DNA of 64,000 nucleotides, taken from positions 98,284 through 162,283 of the forward strand of contig JAGXBC010000001.1 in assembly GCA_018971305.1 (NCBI GenBank). The letters run 5' to 3'. The first letter of the stretch is position 1; each line of letters opens with the position of its first letter. The stretch is from Patescibacteria group bacterium. Its GTDB lineage: Bacteria; Patescibacteriota; Minisyncoccia; UBA6257; 2-01-FULL-56-20. The position numbers were made by a program, and so were the translations under genes. This document shows positions 1,100-16,189 of this stretch, piece by piece. The notes under the pieces are model-generated. The model was not told the DNA's origin and ran no database searches. It was given only the letters and a program-made list of their open reading frames with translations.

Positions 1100-1276
1100 A
1101 AAATTTCTCGCTTGAAGAAATTTATCGCGGTTCTCGGGAAGGGAAAGTTGTAGTAAGTCAGCATTGGGATGGTTGGCGTGTATTAGTACTCCTTGGCTTA
1201 AACCCTTGCGGGCCTTACACCTAGAGCCTATCAACGTCGTAGTCTTCAACGAACACATGATACCTAATCTTGGGGT

Positions 1277-1310
<34 letters not shown>

Positions 1311-1428
1311 CTTCCCGACATAGCTACCCGGCGCTTCAGTTGGTACCAAAGCCGGTAGACCAGAGGTCAGTTCAGCCCAGTCCTCTCGTACTAGGGCCAA
1401 CTCCCCTCAAGTATTAACGCCTGCAACA

Positions 1429-1469
<41 letters not shown>

Positions 1470-2125
1470 ACGTGCCACTTTAATTGGCGAACAGCCAAAC
1501 GCTTGGGAGCTTCTACACCCCCGCGCTGTGGCGAGCCGACATCGAGGTGCCGAGCGAAGTCGTCGATAGGAACTCTCGGACTTCACCAGCCTGTTATCCC
1601 CGGAGTAGCTTTTATCCGGTGTCTCCGATCTTTCTATGAAGAATCGTCGGGTCACTAACTTCTGCTTTCGCATCTGCTCGACTTGTATGTCTCGCAGTTA
1701 AGCCGGCTTTTGCGTTTACACGTCCTGCCCGATTTCCATCCGGGCTAAGCCGACCTTAATAAACTCCTCCGTTACTCTTTTGGAGGAAAACGCCCCATTT
1801 AAACTGCCTACCAAGCACTGTCCCGGTGAGATTTCCATTGTTAGGTTTCTCACTGGTTAGACGTTAAAGTTTTAAAAATGGCTGTTTCATTGTCGGATCC
1901 ACGGCGCCCGAGAGCACCGCTTCAAATCCTCACCACTACGCTACGTAGTAAAACTCTAAAATCAATACCAAGCTGCAGTAAAGCTTCCGGGGTCTTTTCG
2001 TCCCGCTGCAGGTATCCCGCGTCTTCACGGGAATCGCATTTTCACCGAGCTTGCCTCTGAGACAGTTCTCTGATCGTTACGCCTTTCGTGCGCTTCGGAA
2101 CTTACCCGAAAAGGAATTGCGCTTA

Positions 2126-2825
2126 ATTGTGTTATTCTGCCCGGCTCCTTTTCCGGACAACTCTGCATATCGCTATGCAGTTCGGACTATATCTTATCTA
2201 AACCCGAACCGCTCTGCGGTTTTAGGGCTGACCCCAACATATAGTCTCTGAGGATTCTAAAAACGTTTCTTTCTTCGATTCGTTTTGCCTGCAAATTTTA
2301 AAATCTTCTGCCATCCATTTTTTGTTAGGTGTTTCTTTCTCGCCATATCCGCAACAACTTTCTTAAAAATAGAAAAGTCGTTTATTTTATATGTTCGGAG
2401 TGGAAACCTATCAAAGAATGGAATAATAGTGCTTTGCAATTCCGAAATTGACCTTACGCAATAGCGATAAAGATGTTCATGATGATTATCGTATCGTTTA
2501 TTCAGAACGATACTGCCACAACTAAAAAATTCTTTTATCGCTTCTAGCGCTTTTAAACTTTTAGCGCCTTGTGTAATTACGAATTCCGGAAAAATTTGCT
2601 TGCCGAATCGAGTGGTCGGATTCTTGATAACCGAAATTACGAAGCTTCCTTCGCCATCGGTAAATCCAGAAATCCAACTTGCCATTTTTAGCCTTTCCTG
2701 CTGATTGTCTGCACCGAAAACTTTTTTACCTGGCATAATATATCTATGGACGTATTATACCATAGTAGTCTCGGATTCTCCAGATATTCCAGCATATAGT
2801 TGAGTTTTACTAAAGCAACGCATTC
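2126..2825 (-). mobile_element. Group I intron in the 23S rRNA. It is inserted between exon sequences that correspond to E. coli ...CGGTCCTAAGGT|AGCGAAATTCC... (about position 1917).
   Basis: Exon homology to 23S stops after ...CGTTCTAAGGT (complement of 2826-2836). It resumes at AAGCGCAATTCCTTTTCGGGTAAGTTCC (complement of ~2124 downward). The ~700 nt between encode a LAGLIDADG ORF. Boundaries are good to +/- a few nt. Confidence 0.7.
2257..2736 (-). CDS. LAGLIDADG-family homing endonuclease (single-motif, I-CreI-like), encoded inside the intron.
   Basis: 159 aa containing ...WISGFTDGEGSF..., the LAGLIDADG motif. It lies wholly within the 23S interruption. Confidence 0.85.
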   Translation of the reverse strand: MPGKKVFGADNQQERLKMASWISGFTDGEGSFVISVIKNPTTRFGKQIFPEFVITQGAKSLKALEAIKEFFSCGSIVLNKRYDNHHEHLYRYCVRSISELQSTIIPFFDRFPLRTYKINDFSIFKKVVADMARKKHLTKNGWQKILKFAGKTNRRKKRF

Positions 2826-5035
2826 ACCTTAGAACGATTATAGTTATCGCTGACATTGACGAGGGCTTGAGCCGGTGGGCAGTACATATTGCTACATACC
2901 ACTCCCAGCCTTGACCTTCTCGCATCGGTCAGGCGTCACCCCCTATACATCCTCTTGCGAGTTCGCAGGGAGCTGTGTTTTTGGTAAACAGTCGCCAGAG
3001 AGACTTTCGCTGCGGCCCTTCAATGAAGAAGGGCAGGCCATATCGCTAACTTACGGCCGCTTTTTTGCCGAGTTCCTTAGAGGCAAATCACTCGTTCCCC
3101 TTGGGCTTCTCGCCCTATCCACCTGTGTCGGTTTCCGGTACGGATCCCACATAACATAAACACCGCGCTTTTCTCGGAAGGCTATTCGTCGAAGTTTGCG
3201 GAGTAAATTCTCCGCATTCCCGCTCTCCCGGCCGGAGCCTTAGAGCACGGATGCCAAACCAATAAGGCACTTCGATTTATTTCCTTCGCACACTATGTGT
3301 AATTATGCGGGAGGGACGGAATATTAACCGTCTGACCATCAGCTGCGGCTTTCGCCATTGCCTTAGGACCGCCTAACCCGTGGTTGATTGCCAGTGCCAC
3401 GGAAACCTTGGATTTTCGGGGTTCCAATTTCTCATTGGGATTGTGGTTACTCATGCCAACATTTGCTCTTCGTACCGCTCCACGCGCCCTCGCGGGTCGG
3501 GCTTCAACGCAATACGAATGCTCTCCTACCACACCAATGCACAGCATTGGAAGCTCCAAACTCCAAAAATACAATTTCCAAACGTTTGGAAATTAAATAC
3601 TTGGAATTTGAAATTTCCAGTGCCATGCACTGGCATTCATATCTTCGGTACCATGCTTAGCCCCGGTACATTTTCGGCGCACATCGCCATCGAATAGTGA
3701 GTTGTTACACACTCTTTAAAGGATGGCTACCTCTAAGCCAACCTACTATCTGTCTATGGCGACACACTACCTTTAACACTTAGCATGGATTTAGGGACCT
3801 TAGATGATGATCTGGGCTGTTGCCCTCGCGACCATGGAGCTTAGCCCCCACAGTCTGACTAATGGAATTTTGACTCTTGGTATTCGGAGTTTGATTGATC
3901 TGTCGGCCTTTCGGCCTTTACAGATCATCCAGTGCTCTACCCCCAAGAGGAACTTCCACCGCTAGTCCTAAAACTATTTCGGAGAGAACCAGCTATTACC
4001 AGATTCGATTAGCTTTTCACTCCTTACCTCAGGTCATCCGAAGGTTTTGAACAACCAACCGGTTCGGGCCTCCAGTCCGCTTTCGCGAACTTTCACCCTG
4101 CCCAAGGCAAGCTCATCTGGCTTCGGGTCTATACTGCACTGCTTTATTTCGCCCTATTAAGACTCGGTTTCCCTATGCGTACATACCATTTAGGTACTTA
4201 CACGAGCAATGCAAAAATAAGTCGTTGGCTCATTCTTCAATAGGCACACTGTTGTCCTCGTTCTTCCTCTCGAAAAAACGTTCGGACTTCAGTTCCTTGT
4301 AGACAAATGGTTTCAGGTTCTATTTCAACGGCCTCACCGGCCTGCTTTTCGCCTTTCCCTCACGGTACTTGTTCACTATCGATCATCAAAAGTATTTAGC
4401 CTTACCAGATAGTACTGGCAAATTCCTTCGAGACTGTTTGACCTCGAAGTACTCAAGATGCAGCTTGATTTAACTCTTGCTGCAAAAAAACTAAGAAGTT
4501 CTCCGGTTTTCGCCTACCGGGCTATCACCGTCTTTGGCGCCCCTTTCCAGTGGGCTTCGACTAACCGAAAAATTTGTAACTTCTCCTTATTCCGTAAACC
4601 GCCAAATCTCCGACTCCGCCAGACGGCGGATCGGAAACTCGGCGATTCAAAGAACAGAGTTTTTTTCTTTTTACCCCAAGCTCTAAAACTTAGAGCTTAG
4701 TTTGGGCTCTTCCCTTTTCTCTCGCCGATACTAAGGGAATAACGTTTGTTCTTTATTCCTCCGCTTACTGGAATGTTTTACTTCAGCGGGTTTGCTTTCG
4801 GCTTACGCCGAAAAATTGAGGTTTGCTCAATTGGGTTTCCCCATTCGGAAATCCCCGGATCGCAGGTTGCTACGCACCTCCCCGGGGCGTATCGTTGCTA
4901 CGCCACGTCCTTCATCGCCTTTTGATGTCTAGGCATCCACCATTCGCCCTTATTGCCAACCATCCCAATACTGACTTTTTGCCGAGACTGAGAGAAAGAG
5001 GTCTCTATTATAAATAAAGAGACCGGAGTTTTTGC

Positions 5036-5108
5036 AGGCACGGGCAGGAATCGAACCTGCGATTAGATGGCTTGCACACCATCCGCCTTACCACTTGGCT
5101 ACCGTGCC
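5036..5108 (-). tRNA. tRNA, most consistent with tRNA-Cys(GCA), but the anticodon loop is non-canonical at 8 nt.
   Basis: Minus strand reads GGCACGG-TA-GCC..GGC-G-GATGG-UGUGCAAG-CCATC-TAATC-GCAGG-TTCGATT-CCTGC-CCGTGCC-T. Acceptor and T arms are canonical. The discriminator is U73, as in tRNA-Cys. The anticodon stem GATGG/CCATC leaves an 8-nt loop that contains GCA. Confidence 0.5.
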
Positions 5109-6798: not shown

Positions 6799-7599
6799 CT
6801 ATTGGGTAAAAAGAGCTGCTTTCAGCTGGTTGTACTCGACTGTTGGATTAGAAGTATTTATGTGTATGCCGTTTTCATATAGAGCCTCGGCTAGGAGTCC
6901 TGGTTCATTTTGGATGGTCGCCGGCGATTCTATATCGAGCTCTAAGATTTTCGGGAGAGGATCCTCGGCTACTTTTGCTGCGTTGAATACATCGTACATT
7001 TCCATACCGTCATATCGCGTATAGTGTTCTTCGATCAAACAAATGTCCAAGTTCACGCTATAATGGGCACCCAGCCCCACGTCAGAATTGCCACTCGCAG
7101 AACCCGCGTACTGTTGCTGCCATGCTGCGTAAGAAACCTGACACCTTGCTTCATCTTGCGATGGCTGAATGGTCGCGTATGAGCCCGATTGAGGACCGTT
7201 GATATCAAATAGCGCCGAAGGGGCGGGTTGTTCTCCTGACTGGTGTGTAGTTGGGCTGCTGTATGAGGCTCCCTGATTATTAGATGCTGCGAAGGCGATG
7301 ATGATGACAACGATTGTGACTAACAAAATAAGCCACGCATTTCTCCATCTCCGCTGAGTATTCTTAAAATGTTCAACGCTGGCCCAGTGTTTGTTCTTCC
7401 AGGCCCATTCATTGCCTTTTGCGCCCAGAACGAAAATCATCACTAGATTGACGATAGGGATAAGCGCCAAAAGCGCGATATAGGTACCATTCCCGAGCCC
7501 CCATATCCAGTTCAATCCAAAAGCACCCCAATTCCACCCCCTTATCTCGGAAGGGACATAATCATCGACCCTACCGTCTTTAATTTTATATTTTGTCAT
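6799..7599 (-). CDS. Hypothetical membrane protein (two predicted TM segments with a Gln/Ser-rich extracellular region).
   Basis: 266-aa ORF. Hydrophobic stretches at IALLALIPIVNLVMIFVLG and AWLILLVTIVVIIIAFAA. Confidence 0.5.
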   Translation of the reverse strand: MTKYKIKDGRVDDYVPSEIRGWNWGAFGLNWIWGLGNGTYIALLALIPIVNLVMIFVLGAKGNEWAWKNKHWASVEHFKNTQRRWRNAWLILLVTIVVIIIAFAASNNQGASYSSPTTHQSGEQPAPSALFDINGPQSGSYATIQPSQDEARCQVSYAAWQQQYAGSASGNSDVGLGAHYSVNLDICLIEEHYTRYDGMEMYDVFNAAKVAEDPLPKILELDIESPATIQNEPGLLAEALYENGIHINTSNPTVEYNQLKAALFTQ

Positions 7600-7640: not shown

Positions 7641-8072
7641 CTATTTATCCCCCGTACTGCCGAATCCCCCGCGGGTTTTGCCAGGCATTTTTTCAACCTC
7701 TTCCCAGTCGGCTTTGGCGAATTTTATAAACATTCCCTGTGTCAGCCGCTCGCCTTTTTCCACGCGCACCGGTTTGTCCGTGAAGTTGTAATAGGCAGAT
7801 TTGAATTCGTCATCATCACCGCAATAATCCGGGTCAACGATTCCCACCCCATTAACCATCATCAATCCCTTTTTATGGGCCGAACTTCTGGCAGCAAGCA
7901 AAATAAAATGTTCCGCCGGCGCTTCCATTGCGACATTAAGCGGCACGAGGCGAATCTCTTTCGGGGGGATTTCCACGTCTTCCCTCGCCGTCAGGTCAAA
8001 AGCCGCGGCACCGCTAGTTTTGTGCTCCGGCAAGGGAATATTTTTATCAAAACGTTTTATTTTAACGCGCAT
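7641..8072 (-). CDS. dut: dUTP diphosphatase (dUTPase).
   Basis: 143 aa with the conserved dUTPase motifs AARSS..KKG, GVGIVDPDY.GD and the C-terminal RGGFGSTG. Confidence 0.85.
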   Translation of the reverse strand: MRVKIKRFDKNIPLPEHKTSGAAAFDLTAREDVEIPPKEIRLVPLNVAMEAPAEHFILLAARSSAHKKGLMMVNGVGIVDPDYCGDDDEFKSAYYNFTDKPVRVEKGERLTQGMFIKFAKADWEEVEKMPGKTRGGFGSTGDK

Positions 8073-8588: not shown

Positions 8589-10082
8589 TTATTTAACGTG
8601 GTGTTTTTCTTTGATCTCCTCCTCGACGCCATCCTCAAATTCATCTTTGCGGTTTTTGGCTTTTTCCGCAAGCTTTTTAAGATCGTTGTCAGACATACTG
8701 CCCAGTTCTTTTACTCTCTCCTCCAGTTTTTCTTTGTCGTTACCTTTCGGTTCATCCAAAACCTCCTCTAAAAGGACCGATAAAACCCAACCAACGCGCG
8801 GTCCGGGCGGTACTTCTAAAATTTTCATCACATCATCACCGCGCACCGCAAGCATCTTCGGAGAAATAGGATCACGCTTGACTTTATCTATCATAAATAA
8901 AAGGTGGCGCAGTTTATAGGGAAACGCCTTGGGCACTCCCGAGCCGATCCTGTCAGCTTCGCGGACTTGCAACAGCTCATCAACGCTTTCCGGACCGACG
9001 CGAGCTAAAAACCTGCGCACCCCGGCGGCGGATACTTCATCGGTGTTGTAATAAAACATATGATAGCGGACAAGGTGTGCCACTTTCTCGGAAAATTCTT
9101 TGGGGAAGTGCAGGCGGTCAAGGGAGATGGTAGCAAGTTTTGCTCCGATATATTCGTGCTGATAAAAAGTCGAGTCCGGACCCTCGCCCCTCTTTGATTT
9201 CGGCTTGCCCACATCATGTAAAAGCGAGGCCAATCGCACTTCGGTCGAATAATTTTGCTTGGCGGTGTAATCGAGAGCACGCACGTTATGTTCGAAAACT
9301 GTGTAAATATGATGCTTATTCTGGCCGACATTTATCCCCTCACGCAGCTCGGGAATAACGTTCCTCAATAAATTAAGTTCTTCCAAAAGAATTATACCCT
9401 GGGCCGCGCGCGGACAGTTTAGAATCTTTATGAACTCGTCGCGGATGCGCTCTTTGGCTATCATCTCCAGTTCGCCGGAAAGTTTTTCGATGGCCTTACG
9501 CGTGCTTGGCTCTATCTGAAAATCCAACTCAACGGCAAAGCGGACCGCGCGCATTAGGCGCAACGCATCTTCAGAGAAACGCTCCTCTGAGTTGCCCACC
9601 GTACGAATAATTTTATCCTTCAGGTCGTCTTGCCCCTCAAAAGAGTCGATAATTTCACTTTTCTTCCCAACAACATCAAGCGCGAGGGCATTTATCGTAA
9701 AATCGCGCCTGGCCAGGTCTTCTTCCACCGTTTTGGCAAACTTAATTTCGTCCGGATGGCGTTTGTCGGTATATTTTCCTTCTATTCTATAAGTAGTAAC
9801 CTCCACAACCTTAAGCCGCGGGTCTTCCGACTCGGTTTTTATGCCAACTGTTCCAAAATCATTTTCATAAACCGTGGCGGGCTTGTCCTCCGTAGCACCA
9901 GCAAAGGAGGAAAATAATTTCTGCACTTCTTCCGGTTTGGCATTCGTAGTTATATCCCAATCTTTCGGCTCTCTTCCCAGCAAAAGATCGCGAACACAGC
10001 CGCCAACAAGATGGGCGTCGTAACCGGCCTCATTAAGCCTCTTCCCGATTCTTTTAACCTCTTTGGGGATGTCGTAATTCAT
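8589..10082 (-). CDS. cca: CCA-adding tRNA nucleotidyltransferase with an HD domain, plus a Lys/Glu-rich C-terminal tail.
   Basis: The N-terminus has GGCVRDLLLGREPKDWDITT, the PolyA_pol head signature. HDVGKP marks the HD domain. 497 aa. Confidence 0.8.
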   Translation of the reverse strand: MNYDIPKEVKRIGKRLNEAGYDAHLVGGCVRDLLLGREPKDWDITTNAKPEEVQKLFSSFAGATEDKPATVYENDFGTVGIKTESEDPRLKVVEVTTYRIEGKYTDKRHPDEIKFAKTVEEDLARRDFTINALALDVVGKKSEIIDSFEGQDDLKDKIIRTVGNSEERFSEDALRLMRAVRFAVELDFQIEPSTRKAIEKLSGELEMIAKERIRDEFIKILNCPRAAQGIILLEELNLLRNVIPELREGINVGQNKHHIYTVFEHNVRALDYTAKQNYSTEVRLASLLHDVGKPKSKRGEGPDSTFYQHEYIGAKLATISLDRLHFPKEFSEKVAHLVRYHMFYYNTDEVSAAGVRRFLARVGPESVDELLQVREADRIGSGVPKAFPYKLRHLLFMIDKVKRDPISPKMLAVRGDDVMKILEVPPGPRVGWVLSVLLEEVLDEPKGNDKEKLEERVKELGSMSDNDLKKLAEKAKNRKDEFEDGVEEEIKEKHHVK

Positions 10083-12972: not shown

Positions 12973-12980
12973 ATTTTCTG

Positions 12981-13052
12981 TGCCGACGGCAGGAATCGAA
13001 CCTGCGACCCAGCGCTTATGAAACGCTTGCTCTACCACTGAGCTACGCCGGC
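12981..13052 (-). tRNA. tRNA-Met (elongator-type, anticodon CAU).
   Basis: GCCGGCG-TA-GCTC-AGTGGTA-GAGC-A-AGCGT-TTCATAA-GCGCT-GGGTC-GCAGG-TTCGATT-CCTGC-CGTCGGC-A. The anticodon stem lacks the GGG/CCC of initiator tRNAs. Confidence 0.85.
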
Positions 13053-13748: not shown

Positions 13749-14645
13749 GTGATAATGGACGATATAAGTATTATCGCCGGCCCGTTCACTGACGACATCC
13801 TGAATGTTTTTTTCCGAACTTTTGGGTTTTGGAATAGACCTGTCGTAAACGAAAAAACGGTTACAACCAAAAAGCAATTACGAGTTAGAGATAAATTTCT
13901 GATTCGGAATAACGAACAAATAGTAACGGCACTGGAAAACAGGCGTCTCGGAAATCTTCTCCAAAAACTGCGGTGGGCAAATCCCCCGTCCATCTGTCTC
14001 GCTCAACTTGAAACATATCCTAAACGGATTAGGCTTGTTACTTATGTGACAAAATTTTCCGTCTTTCCGAAACGCATTCTGTCATTCTGCAAAAAATCAG
14101 CTTTCCTAATCGCAGGCGAACACGTTATGGAGTCCAACGCGATAACTATCTGTCCGGAAAATTTATGGCGAGCTTCTAATAAGAATCCGCGGGATGATGA
14201 TGTTTTTAGATATAAGCGCGCACTTACGTGGACCCTGGCGCACGAATTGGGCCATTCCTGGCTCCACAAACAAAAACATTGGACGCACGTTCCACCCTGG
14301 TTTATTAGAGTAATCCTTGCTGTGCCGCGGCTATTCCAGCAAGTCATCCTAGCCCACAAAGAAGGCCGGCTGGCGATAGCGGCGGGATTACTTTTCTATA
14401 TCTTCCTTCTCCCTCAGCAACTACTGACAGCGGTGGAATACACAATTTGTTCATTACTGGTCACTATCGCCTTACTGTGGCTGGACAAAATTATTCTTCC
14501 AATTATGATCGAAATGAAAGCCGATGAATTCGCGGAAAAGTTCATGTTAAAGAACGGCGAAGAGCTCTCCAGGTGTATCAGCGCCAGAAAAGAATCACCA
14601 TATTCTGATATCGGTTACAAAACCCCGACACCATTGTTCAAATGA
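13749..14645 (+). CDS. Membrane-associated zinc metallopeptidase-like protein (HExxH).
   Basis: LAHELGHSW is an HExxH motif. C-terminal hydrophobic helices. 298 aa. Confidence 0.5.
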   Translation: MIMDDISIIAGPFTDDILNVFFRTFGFWNRPVVNEKTVTTKKQLRVRDKFLIRNNEQIVTALENRRLGNLLQKLRWANPPSICLAQLETYPKRIRLVTYVTKFSVFPKRILSFCKKSAFLIAGEHVMESNAITICPENLWRASNKNPRDDDVFRYKRALTWTLAHELGHSWLHKQKHWTHVPPWFIRVILAVPRLFQQVILAHKEGRLAIAAGLLFYIFLLPQQLLTAVEYTICSLLVTIALLWLDKIILPIMIEMKADEFAEKFMLKNGEELSRCISARKESPYSDIGYKTPTPLFK

Positions 14646-14811
14646 CTTTCGGGGTTTTTATTTTTATAACTTGTTCAACTCCTATCATTATTTTTACTAG
14701 AAGCGTAAGTTTGCGCTTCTTGAGGGTTTCTCGGAGCCACGAAGGTGGTGAGAGTAAGCGCGCTTCAAGCATGAAGCGACGCGTCCCTCAAGAAGCACGA
14801 ACCGGAGCCAT

Positions 14812-14887
14812 TTGCGGGGGTGGGAGTTGAACCCACTTCAGCAGCTTATGGGGCTGCCCGGAGAAAACCTTCCCCAGCCCTCCCGCG
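14812..14887 (-). tRNA. tRNA-like gene with anticodon CAU. It has an initiator-like acceptor end but an irregular D-arm. It could be an atypical tRNA-Met/fMet or a pseudogene.
   Basis: The minus strand carries a clean anticodon arm GCAGC-CCCAUAA-GCUGC and a T arm GUGGG-UUCAACU-CCCAC. The 3' end CCCCGCAA is identical to the E. coli tRNA-fMet acceptor 3' strand plus A72-A73. The 5' side CGCGGGA... would give C1xA72. The D region is ~4 nt too long to fold canonically, and there is no GGG/CCC in the anticodon stem. Confidence 0.35.
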
Positions 14888-14953
14888 CATTAAACACAAA
14901 ATCAAGTATAAACGAATTGTCAAAAATCTCCAAGCGTGAGAACATAAATATTA

Positions 14954-16189
14954 ATGAGACTTGCGATACTTGGCTTCGGCCGCGAAGGAAAATCTATTTT
15001 GAAATTTATAAAAAAATCTCCCGAATACCGCGGCGCGAAAATTGAAATTCTTGATAAAAAGCGCAGTAAAAATTATCTAAAAAATCTGGAAAAATTCGGT
15101 ATTATATTCCGCTCCCCGGGAATCCCCTATAATCTGCCAGAGCTGAAACGCGCGAGGAAAACCGGTGTTAGATTTTCCAGCGCCACGAAACTGTTTTTTA
15201 ACAATTGTCCGACAAAAAATATCATCGGCGTTACAGGCACTAAAGGCAAAGGCACAACCTCTACGCTGCTTTATAAAATCCTTAAAGCTTCCGGTAGGCG
15301 GGTTTTACTCGCCGGCAACATCGGAAAATCCGCGCTGGAAATTTTGCCGAGACTAAAAAATAATTCCTTGGTTGTCTTGGAATTATCCAGTTTCCAGCTC
15401 CAAGACCTCACGCTATCACCGCATATCGCCGTAGTTCTGGATATCTTCCCAGACCATCAAGACGCGCACCTCAATCTCCGCGAATACTACGAAGCGAAAA
15501 CCAACGTCGCCCGCAATCAGAAAAAGTCGGATAAAATTTTCTTTTTTAAGGATAATGCCTTAAGCCGCTGGACTGCCGCAAAGAGCCGCGGCAAAAAAAT
15601 AGGAATTGATCCAAAAAAATTCCGTCTCTTCGGCTGGGAAGATTTAAAAATCAGGGGTTGGTATAATTTTAAAAATGCAGTCATGGCGGCGACCGTCACC
15701 GAATCCCTGGGAATACCGGAGAAAATAATATTAAAAACAGTAAAAAGTTTCCGCGGCAATGAACATCGCCTGGAATTCGTAAGAAAAATCGGCGGCGTAG
15801 AATTCTGGAACGATTCCGCCTCAACAAACCCGCAAACAACCGCGGCGGCGATAAAAGCATTCCCAAAGGAAGGCAAAATACTTATTGCCGGAGGCCAGGA
15901 TAAAGGACTAGATTACAAACCACTCGCTCAAGCCCTGAAAAATTCCGACACAAAGCTTGTAATTCTTTTCGGCGAGAATAAAAGTAAAATCGCCGGTGCA
16001 ATTAAAAAATCAGGCGTCCCAATAAAATTTGTTAAAGATTTAAAAACTGCCATCCGGACATCTTATAATTTCGCCAAAAAATCACCGCCCGCAAAAATAT
16101 TATTCTCACCCGGAGCCACAAGTTTTGATATGTTCGAAAACTATGCCAACCGCGGCAAACAGTTCAAACTATTGACAAAAAAGTTATAA
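14954..16189 (+). CDS. murD: UDP-N-acetylmuramoyl-L-alanine--D-glutamate ligase.
   Basis: 411 aa with GVTGTKGKGTT (P-loop) and LLAGNIG, an overall Mur ligase layout. Confidence 0.8.
   Translation: MRLAILGFGREGKSILKFIKKSPEYRGAKIEILDKKRSKNYLKNLEKFGIIFRSPGIPYNLPELKRARKTGVRFSSATKLFFNNCPTKNIIGVTGTKGKGTTSTLLYKILKASGRRVLLAGNIGKSALEILPRLKNNSLVVLELSSFQLQDLTLSPHIAVVLDIFPDHQDAHLNLREYYEAKTNVARNQKKSDKIFFFKDNALSRWTAAKSRGKKIGIDPKKFRLFGWEDLKIRGWYNFKNAVMAATVTESLGIPEKIILKTVKSFRGNEHRLEFVRKIGGVEFWNDSASTNPQTTAAAIKAFPKEGKILIAGGQDKGLDYKPLAQALKNSDTKLVILFGENKSKIAGAIKKSGVPIKFVKDLKTAIRTSYNFAKKSPPAKILFSPGATSFDMFENYANRGKQFKLLTKKL

Follow-up and report, generated by a model that had tools for sequence, protein, structure and literature searches.

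In a 64,000-nucleotide (nt) stretch of the genome of a Patescibacteria group bacterium (contig JAGXBC010000001.1; hereafter the window), we identified a putative small stable-RNA unit on the minus strand at 14619-14932, upstream of murD. We consider it probable that this unit comprises a lineage-specific initiator tRNA and a cis-acting spacer or trailer RNA folded as a three-way junction (3WJ), and that it would run from a promoter through the initiator tRNA and the structured RNA to a shared terminator. The parts of this account carry different weights. We are confident that the helices behind the tRNA are part of an element that is conserved, structured, and associated with stable-RNA genes. 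The gene at 14887->14812 is very likely a functional initiator tRNA; judged from its sequence, it is a tRNA-fMet by descent and by acceptor and anticodon identity, but a structural variant of that class. We propose more tentatively, at somewhat less than an even chance, that the predicted 3WJ acts in cis in processing or protection.

The unit occupies a gap of 308 nt, which the sequence-only reading (made by a model from the letters and their open reading frames, ORFs) had described as non-coding and upstream of murD, and this was borne out. On one side lies an ORF of 298 amino acids (13749-14645, +), for which there was no family match, and on the other murD (14954-16189, +), whose identity is established by a TIGR01087 match of 331 bits (cut-off 212). 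The nearest MurD proteins, 52-62% identical to that of the window, come from metagenome-assembled genomes of Candidatus Liptonbacteria, Paceibacterota, and “Patescibacteria group.” Together with the large insertions in the 23S rRNA gene, these relatives assign the organism to the candidate phyla radiation (CPR)/Patescibacteria. Along the minus strand, the order is a promoter-like site, the tRNA, a linker of 19 nt, nested helices, an A/U-rich stretch, and a terminator-like hairpin. The promoter-like site (14905-14932, TGGAGA-N16-TATACT, minus strand) was found in a consensus scan with 9/12 matches and ends 17 nt upstream of the tRNA 5' end. The linker AUGGCUCCGGUUCGUGCUU (14793-14811, minus strand) leads from the tRNA discriminator to the junction element and contains a GCUNCRR-like motif that, judged by eye, recurs in relatives. 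At 14619-14660, the hairpin CCCCGA...UCGGGG has A-runs and U-runs on both strands, as seen in the sequence and in minimum free energy (MFE) folds, and is likely a bidirectional intrinsic terminator for the 298-residue ORF (+) and the tRNA/3WJ unit (-). The terminator scan tool gave no call there because the loop exceeds 8 nt, and a 20-bit Rfam match to the “rimP leader” proved to be merely this hairpin. The 289-nt minus-strand transcript had a folding z of -4.99, and none of 200 shuffles was equally stable.

The tRNA gene (14812-14887, minus strand) is 76 nt long, does not encode CCA, and reads CGCGGGA GGG CUGGGGAA-GGUU-UUCUCCGG GCAGC-CCCAUAA-GCUGC UGAA GUGGG-UUCAACU-CCCAC CCCCGCA-A. Its 3' strand, CCCCGCAA, implies C1xA72 and matches that of E. 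coli tRNA-fMet. The anticodon arm (CAU, loop CCCAUAA on a stem of 5-6 base pairs, bp) and the T arm are perfect, the acceptor stem has a bulged A after pair 6:67, a GG(G/C) connector follows, the discriminator is A73, and the variable loop spans 3-4 nt. The sequence-only reading had reported this CAU gene with its two perfect arms, its C1xA72 mismatch, and an anticodon stem devoid of a GGG/CCC run, all of which are present. It had also called the D region over-long; the region is indeed non-canonical, but it is not disordered, forming a hairpin of 7-8 bp with a GGUU loop in the window and a regular hairpin of 6-8 bp with a 4-nt loop across the family described below.

The gene escaped both tRNA searches applied to it. 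ARAGORN found six tRNAs in the window, none of them at 14812-14887, and Rfam RF00005 at its gathering score (29 bits) returned the same six and no match there. The best match within the tRNA clan was to tRNA-Sec (27.5 bits, where the gathering score is 47; E = 0.002 in a 441-nt stretch), and at E <= 10 the segment 14560-15000 yielded only sub-threshold tRNA-Sec and tymovirus tRNA-like matches on the tRNA. No Rfam model, then, folds it as a standard tRNA, which is what the earlier reading's proposed covariance-model check had been meant to reveal. Among relatives (loci are designated here by L and a number), RF00005 reached its gathering score in L004 alone (29.6 bits), and ARAGORN called four of 28 family members, each in a shifted frame, and mis-called L177 as tRNA-Arg(CCU). 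Several other identities were rejected. An indel or sequencing error in the D region is ruled out by two further assemblies of the same strain, in which the region is 100% identical, and by the conserved family. Transfer-messenger RNA, in one or two pieces, is ruled out because ARAGORN finds none and the anticodon arm is complete; signal recognition particle RNA, RNase P RNA, and 6S RNA are ruled out by the absence of their conserved motifs by eye and of Rfam matches; and a phage origin found no support, as an anticodon-arm pattern search of IMG/VR returned no tRNA of this kind.

We retrieved the family by scanning metagenomes with the anticodon-arm pattern GGSAGCCCCATAAGCTS, which matched at least 120 loci. 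Among the matches listed, the variant was carried by at least ~40 metagenomic and genomic loci in at least 28 distinct sequences; these 28 distinct variants (alignment A2) underlie every count of 28 in this text. Several of the contigs are named after 0.1-um groundwater filter fractions. At position 1:72, 24 of the 28 sequences have C.A, three have U:A, and one has G.A, while G2:C71, C3:G70, G4:C69, and A73 are invariant (with one alignment gap at position 4) and pairs 5:68 and 6:67 covary from G:C to C:G, U:A, and U:G. The acceptor bulge is a single variable nucleotide (A, C, or U; none in L123) before an invariant G:C pair (G:U once), and the connector after the acceptor stem is GG(U/C/A). 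The D hairpin is of the GGGAA/UUUCC type with 6-8 bp, closed by UGGU, AGGU, or GGGU in place of the window's GGUU. An extra G:Y pair extends the anticodon stem to 6 bp in all 28 sequences, the anticodon loop is CCCAUAA (with C33), the variable loop again has 3-4 nt, the T arm has its usual 5-bp stem and 7-nt loop, with covariation in four of the five pairs, and CCA is mostly unencoded. In L177 (3579-3665, -), about 13 extra nt sit at the tip of the D hairpin (GGGAAUCUGGUGCCUUAUGGCUUUUCC), from which it follows that the tip of the D arm tolerates insertion.

The proposed cloverleaf was paired in 98.4% of alignment cells, with eight pairs changed on both sides, and none of 500 shuffles reached the observed values. 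When the pairing partners were slid as a control, pairing fell to 39-62%. An independent RNAalifold run returned the identical cloverleaf, including the 6-bp D and anticodon stems, so that four arms and a UUCRANY-type T loop are present with support from covariation. Upstream of the tRNA, a near-consensus promoter (TTGACA-N16-18-TAnnnT), ending 3-27 nt before the gene, was present in 16 of 35 distinct upstream regions.

Identity elements and synteny both point to an initiator. The window gene has the CAU anticodon, lacks a Watson-Crick pair at 1:72 (where initiators usually have C1xA72), and carries the acceptor determinants of formyltransferase and methionyl-tRNA synthetase (MetRS), namely G2:C71, C3:G70, G4:C69, and A73. 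Using blastn against loci fetched with MurD, together with ARAGORN, we found variant or homologous genes directly upstream of murD in five GTDB genomes (L003, L004, L005, L006, and L007). Three of these (L003, L004, and L006) have the odd form seen in the window, and L005 has an intermediate form that ARAGORN calls tRNA-Met and Rfam does not call. The gene beside murD in L007 is a recognised, canonical tRNA-fMet, CGCGGGGUGGAGCAGCUCGGUCAGCUCGUCAGGCCCAUAACCUGAAGGUCGCCGGUUCAAAUCCGGCCCCCGCAACCA (CGCGGGG...CCCCGCAACCA; RF00005, 58.4 bits), making the variant orthologous to it: the two agree in their adjacency to murD, in the 3WJ element downstream, and in a second tRNA(CAU) nearby. Across 392 kb of related loci, ARAGORN identified CAU tRNAs of the variant form and of two G1:C72 classes, and these three classes fit the trio of fMet, Met, and Ile2. 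The sole canonical initiator in those 392 kb was that of L007, which has no variant. The second CAU tRNA of the window (12980-13052) is of a G1:C72 class and therefore not an initiator.

Several observations weigh against the initiator assignment. Initiator tRNA is among the most conserved of bacterial molecules, and three G:C pairs in the anticodon stem together with A11:U24 are treated as its near-universal marks. The three G:C pairs at 29-31:39-41 are missing from the variant, whose stem is A29:U41, G30:C40, C31:G39, and so is A11:U24 in a 4-bp D stem, there being no A:U at the second D pair. U8 and A14 are absent as well, and position 33 is C. The L007 gene, with its canonical D arm, itself keeps only two of the three G:C pairs (A:U, G:C, G:C). 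Of 4438 annotated bacterial initiators, 4430 have A11:U24 (PMC5143459). The family evidence also has built-in limits: most of the anticodon arm was prescribed by the retrieval pattern and is therefore invariant by construction, and the D stem is nearly invariant, so its support comes from conservation and not from covariation. That the gene is missed by tRNA finders holds for ARAGORN and the Rfam gathering score only. Finally, the sequence-only reading had suggested a search for a canonical tRNA-fMet elsewhere; none was found in the 64-kb window, to which the search was confined.

These points leave two other readings of the tRNA. It could be a functional tRNA(CAU) of another role, such as an elongator tRNA-Met, a precursor of tRNA-Ile2, or a regulatory tRNA mimic. 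Its core does resemble those of the special-purpose tRNAs for Sec and Pyl, with 6-bp D and anticodon stems and a small D loop, and three family members have a U1:A72 pair. We nevertheless regard this as very unlikely, since C1xA72 is found in 24 of 28 sequences, the two G1:C72 CAU classes can serve Met and Ile2, and the gene is the positional ortholog of the L007 initiator. The acceptor stem CGCGGG/CCCGCA with A73, which matches that of E. coli tRNA-fMet, also speaks against another role. Even the minority pairs are compatible with an initiator, as C.A, U:A, and G.A at 1:72 are all recorded among annotated bacterial initiators (PMC5143459).

Slightly less likely still is a decayed or supernumerary gene, with a canonical tRNA-fMet elsewhere doing the work. 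The gene falls below the ARAGORN and RF00005 thresholds and has lost the near-universal initiator marks described above, and the sequence examined covers 64 kb of the genome. Against decay, 28 distinct sequences keep the odd form with 98% pairing and compensatory changes, near-consensus promoters are common upstream, the gene stands at the site of the canonical L007 tRNA-fMet, and 392 kb of variant-bearing loci hold no canonical initiator save that of L007, itself without the variant. The sequence-only reading had entertained a degenerate initiator tRNA. The noun in that phrase stands, on the strength of L007 synteny, the acceptor stem, A73, and CAU; the adjective does not, given the 28 conserved sequences, their pairing, and the promoters in 16 of 35 upstream regions.

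Comparison with known tRNAs clarifies what has been kept and what has changed. With bacterial tRNA-fMet (such as E. coli metZ/metY), the variant shares CAU, C1xA72, G2:C71, C3:G70, G4:C69, A73, and the T arm. It differs in retaining G30:C40 alone of the three G:C pairs, in having C33 for U33 and a bulge between 6:67 and 7:66, and in its D stem of 6-8 bp with a 4-nt loop, 6-bp anticodon stem, and 3-nt variable loop. tRNA-Sec (RF01852) has a similar 6-bp D stem, 4-nt UGGU-type loop, and 6-bp anticodon stem, but the variant has CAU and not UCA, no long variable arm, and a 7/5 acceptor/T geometry instead of 8/5 or 9/4; the features that define membership in that family (UCA, long variable arm, 13-bp acceptor plus T helix, at least 47 bits) are all absent from it. 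tRNA-Pyl has a similarly compact core, combining a 6-bp anticodon stem and a variable loop of 3 nt with a tiny D loop; the variant differs in keeping the D-loop GG, a UUCG-type T loop, and a 3-nt instead of a 1-nt connector, and in its anticodon and acceptor identity. C33 is also found in eukaryotic cytoplasmic initiator tRNAs (plants, fungi), where it accompanies A1:U72 and a canonical D arm. Those tRNAs belong to another domain of life, whereas here C33 is also present in L007 with its canonical D arm, so C33 extends beyond the tRNAs with a rebuilt D arm. The C33 CCCAUAA loop was likewise observed in further initiator-like tRNAs from metagenome loci (L130, L135, L144, L146, L157, L087/L188, and L088), whose D arms are ordinary or odd in another way and of which L130 has A1:U72 and an archaeal-type acceptor end; C33 in initiator tRNAs seems to be more widespread than the rebuilt D arm.

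We propose that this gene supplies the genome's tRNA-fMet, in a form peculiar to a Patescibacteria subclade (Liptonbacteria/Paceibacterota-like). CAU, A73, the 1:72 mismatch, G2:C71, C3:G70, and G4:C69, which are what MetRS and formyltransferase read, are kept. The core is rebuilt: U8, A14, A11:U24, and two of the three anticodon-stem G:C pairs have given way to C33, the acceptor bulge, a D hairpin of 6-7 bp with a GG tetraloop, an anticodon stem of 6 bp, and a variable loop of 3 nt. Maturation would presumably proceed by RNase P, a 3' endonuclease, and a CCA-adding-like enzyme, after which the tRNA would be charged, formylated, and used in the ribosomal P site. A candidate for the last of these enzymes is encoded in the window at 8589-10082 (-), a class-II nucleotidyltransferase of 497 amino acids with an HD domain that scores 267-280 bits with CCA tRNA nucleotidyltransferase models, below their equivalog cut-offs; such a gene would fit tRNA genes without an encoded CCA.

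Directly behind the linker, the repeats cttgaggg/ccctcaag enclose the hairpins ccacgaaggtgg and gcttcaagcatgaagc, much as the sequence-only reading had described, and together they form the 3WJ at 14719-14792 (minus strand), as given by an MFE fold and by covariance models R1 and R2 (88.7 bits here). In the window, P1 is CUUGAGGG/CCCUCAAG and extends outward to 14713-14798, P2 is the hairpin GCG-U-CGCUUCA-UGCU-UGAAGCG-CGC, and P3 is CUC-UCA-[CCAC-CUUC-GUGG]-CUCC-GAG with a pyrimidine-rich internal loop. The same architecture holds across the family, where a long P1 encloses the P2 hairpin and a P3 whose lower helix and upper hairpin are split by the pyrimidine-rich loop (UC on the 5' side, (C)UCC and then G on the 3' side, with A after the lower helix). 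The closing helix P1 is uninterrupted over 14-30 bp, and the conserved unpaired motifs are the UC/YUCC internal loop, an ACCAAKC bulge in the long forms, and UCCRGCG loops. An alternative hairpin at 14700-14719 (GAAGCG-CAAACUUA-CGCUUC, minus strand, read from the sequence) reuses the outer 3' arm of P1 and would compete with its outer 6 bp, and L168 has a comparable alternative pairing with a downstream CGCUUC(GG) at ~7520-7560 (CCGAAGCG-N8-CGCUUCGG). Two mutually exclusive helices are thus kept in the window and L168, the two closest relatives.

The family came to light when we compared the 150 nt downstream of each family tRNA. MFE folds gave the 3WJ independently in the window and in L165, L154, L160, L132, L096, L004, L127, L168, and L197, and the element starts 18-20 nt past the tRNA 3' end in eight of 10 measured loci; L160 has a distance of 30 nt and L165 one of 117 nt. 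Taken over 11 loci, the start falls within 18-30 nt of tRNA-fMet in 10. We then relied on two covariance models, R1 built from three sequences and R2 from nine, which recovered the folded loci. Searched with R2, 412 kb of related loci gave 14 matches below E = 1e-4, and 782 kb of unrelated loci gave a single one, at E = 0.14. Its additional matches included one of 69 bits behind the canonical tRNA-fMet of L007, a tandem second copy in L096, L007 7775-7887, and two more in the window. In an alignment of 12 members, 93.1% of cells were paired and 24 of 26 pairs showed compensatory changes, with a covariation score of 0.76 compared to 0.22 for shuffles and with 40-50% pairing in slid controls. 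The helices are therefore conserved in related genomes, with compensatory changes in unrelated contigs, a conservation check that the sequence-only reading had advised. Rfam 15 held no match to 14719-14792 at E <= 10, nor to the homologous elements of 20 related loci at gathering score. The suggestion of an unrecognised structured non-coding RNA thus holds for the helices, which form a conserved family absent from Rfam, whereas the idea that they are part of the tRNA-like element fails, since the module is separate and also occurs after 23S and beyond 5S in the window.

Some known RNAs were considered for the 3WJ and set aside: a 5S-like origin, because 14560-15000 has no 5S model match at E <= 10; a small ribozyme such as the hammerhead, because conservation is lacking at the junction nucleotides; and a K-turn in P3, because the sense strand has no tandem G.A and the antisense loop GGA/GA breaks the 3-nt-bulge rule.

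With filters off, R2 found exactly three copies in the window, all beside stable-RNA genes. The second, a long form at 1028-1138 (-; 35.2 bits, E ~4e-7), has an inner hairpin and an ACCAAGC bulge in P3 and lies in the 23S-5S spacer, ~25 nt past the 23S 3' end and just outside the 23S flank-pairing stem. The third, also a long form, is at 560-670 (+; 34.4 bits, E ~6e-7). The P3 arms of these two copies are ~90% identical over ~55 nt, and the copies flank the 5S gene (736-851, Rfam) as an inverted pair; readthrough of the 5S terminator could produce a long duplex bracketing the 5S rRNA. The 5S gene has a flank-pairing stem of its own, CUGCGGUGUUUUGUUG / CAACAAAGCACCGCAG, followed by U7. Beyond the window, the 3WJ of L007 and of L132 lies between tRNA-fMet and a second tRNA(CAU), all on one strand with spacers of ~20-35 nt. 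Because the 3WJ is co-oriented with the upstream stable-RNA gene in 12 of 14 copies, we read it as an intercistronic or trailer module.

A different set of observations counts against that module and its assigned strand. The copy at 560-670 is inverted relative to the rRNA operon and is found on the far side of the 5S gene and of its terminator (a stem plus U7), and the L007 copy at 7775-7887 has no detected stable-RNA gene nearby. The 3WJ is present at only 10 of ~33 distinct variant-tRNA loci, with plain hairpins at the others. Wobble pairs mark no strand (six G.U against seven A.C), and for 13 of 14 copies the greater predicted stability belongs to the reverse complement (summed -987 vs -856 kcal/mol), because the sense loops are C/U-rich. 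The alignment used for covariation was fitted to the model. We rejected a further R2 match, L112 10197-10288 (+; 39.5 bits), as a probable false positive because it lies inside an ORF of 3390 amino acids and nearly lacks the P3b hairpin, and it too must be counted here, as no match in the 782-kb negative control comes near its score.

Three other explanations of the 3WJ have to be weighed. It might be released as a stable small RNA that rides on stable-RNA promoters and acts in trans, titrating a protein or pairing through its C/U-rich loops. Its unpaired motifs are conserved, and where tRNAs flank it, as in L007 and L132, their maturation by RNase P and at the 3' end would cut the element free. 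We still consider a trans-acting RNA, with its hypothetical target or partner, unlikely, given that sequence conservation outside the helices is modest and that the occupancy of 10 in ~33 loci makes the element dispensable at that site.

A marginally weaker, and to us rather improbable, alternative is a selfish or neutral repeat of the miniature inverted-repeat transposable element (MITE), REP, or Correia kind, residing in safe intergenic sites, whose apparent structure would be DNA-level inverted repeats. The window does hold at least three copies within 64 kb, in both orientations; the closing inverted repeats reach ~30 bp; no excess of G.U marks an RNA strand; and the one L007 copy lies away from stable RNAs. 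However, copies within the same genome differ in every helix while keeping their pairing, which speaks against recent transposition and against ends recognised by a transposase. The site and direction behind tRNA-fMet stay the same in genomes whose MurD shares just 52-62% identity with that of the window, and the strand-specific motifs CUC...YUCCG..A follow the orientation of the upstream RNA gene in 13 of 14 cases. No transposase gene was noted among the ORFs listed around the copies examined, in which no search was aimed at one. The least likely explanation, a functional RNA on the opposite strand that would converge as an antisense transcript on tRNA and rRNA 3' ends, gains from the greater stability of the reverse complement and its purine-rich loops (GGA/GA), but the elements of L132 and L007 are squeezed between same-strand tRNAs with spacers that leave no room for an antisense promoter, and in the window the promoter scan found no plus-strand promoter adjoining the element and no terminator lies between it and the tRNA.

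We therefore return to the co-transcribed module as our preferred account of the 3WJ, and compare it with known systems. Like the processing helices of rRNA and tRNA spacers (RNase III-type stems, 3' external transcribed spacers), it lies between stable RNAs of one transcript and has a long perfect closing helix; it differs in being a self-contained junction with internal-loop motifs and not a duplex of the two flanks of a mature RNA. The window 23S and 5S genes have their own flank-pairing stems besides the 3WJ, which is itself a putative cleavage site. Like intergenic repeats (REP/BIME, ERIC, Correia, and RUP-type MITEs), it is multi-copy, intergenic, found in both orientations, and made of nested inverted repeats; unlike them, its copies are divergent and compensatory, its site and orientation behind tRNA-fMet are fixed across distant genomes, and there is no sign of recent mobility. 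With 5S rRNA it shares topology only, as an end-closed three-way junction of ~75-115 nt after 23S, whereas its loop motifs are unrelated and the true 5S is at 736-851.

In the mechanism we propose, the 3WJ would be co-transcribed directly behind stable RNAs. In this genome these are tRNA-fMet and 23S rRNA, and in at least 10 other lineages it is tRNA-fMet that precedes the element. As a cis-acting intercistronic module, it would direct the endonucleolytic separation of neighboring stable RNAs, block 3' exonucleases until processing, or both. The P1 duplex is of the kind that double-strand-specific endonucleases may cut and that could stall 3' exonucleases, and the conserved loop is a plausible protein contact.

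We found no published description of the variant initiator or of the 3WJ spacer in the full-text literature, whose coverage was incomplete and included an initiator-gene census, a Patescibacteria tRNA study, and a CPR ribosome study. In a 2026 study of 95 complete Patescibacteria genomes, only 20 amino-acid classes were scored (PMC13011429), so that a missing tRNA-fMet would be hidden by elongator tRNA-Met. The broadest form of our proposal is that a large Patescibacteria branch starts every protein with a core-rebuilt initiator tRNA and that the 3WJ serves its stable-RNA operons as a reusable spacer with a specific part to play in processing or in binding a protein; we put this at even odds. 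If it is true, genome annotations of these organisms would be systematically without tRNA-fMet, and co-evolved recognition by initiation factor 3 (IF3) and 16S rRNA, formyltransferase, and RNase P would be implied. A natural, widespread initiator without either near-universal mark would be a test case for P-site discrimination by IF3 and the 30S subunit, for the needs of formyltransferase and RNase P, and for drift of the tRNA core in reduced genomes. A covariance model built from the variant sequences would fill a likely gap in CPR tRNA annotation. The 3WJ, a candidate new RNA family, would add a structured RNA outside Rfam with strong covariation, and its location after tRNA-fMet and 23S makes its function testable.

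The surroundings of the unit showed further peculiarities. The 23S rRNA gene (1167-4963, -; Rfam) spans 3797 nt against a model of 2925 positions, with large insertions of ~80 nt near model position 312 and more near 400 and 583. There is no 16S rRNA gene in the 64 kb, and the operon consists of tRNA-Arg, a tRNA-Cys-like gene, 23S, and 5S. The tRNA-Cys-like gene (5036-5108, -), between tRNA-Arg(UCG) and 23S, scores 58 bits with RF00005 and was given a two-base “anticodon (gc)” by ARAGORN. It reads ...GAUGG-UGUGCAAG-CCAUC..., which corresponds to an anticodon loop of 8 nt or to a 6-bp stem with a 6-nt loop; its GCA and U73 suggest a tRNA-Cys whose anticodon loop is abnormal. In L092, L093, L138, L177, and L168, a G-rich segment ~80-200 nt downstream of the variant tRNA ends in a hairpin and GUGU(C/A)GGA (e.g. 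GGGGUCGGGGAACCACCGGUUCCCCGUGUCGGAGG). This segment received no call from ARAGORN or from Rfam at gathering score, and a pattern search of the window gave chance-level matches only; possibly it represents a further non-coding element conserved in these genomes.

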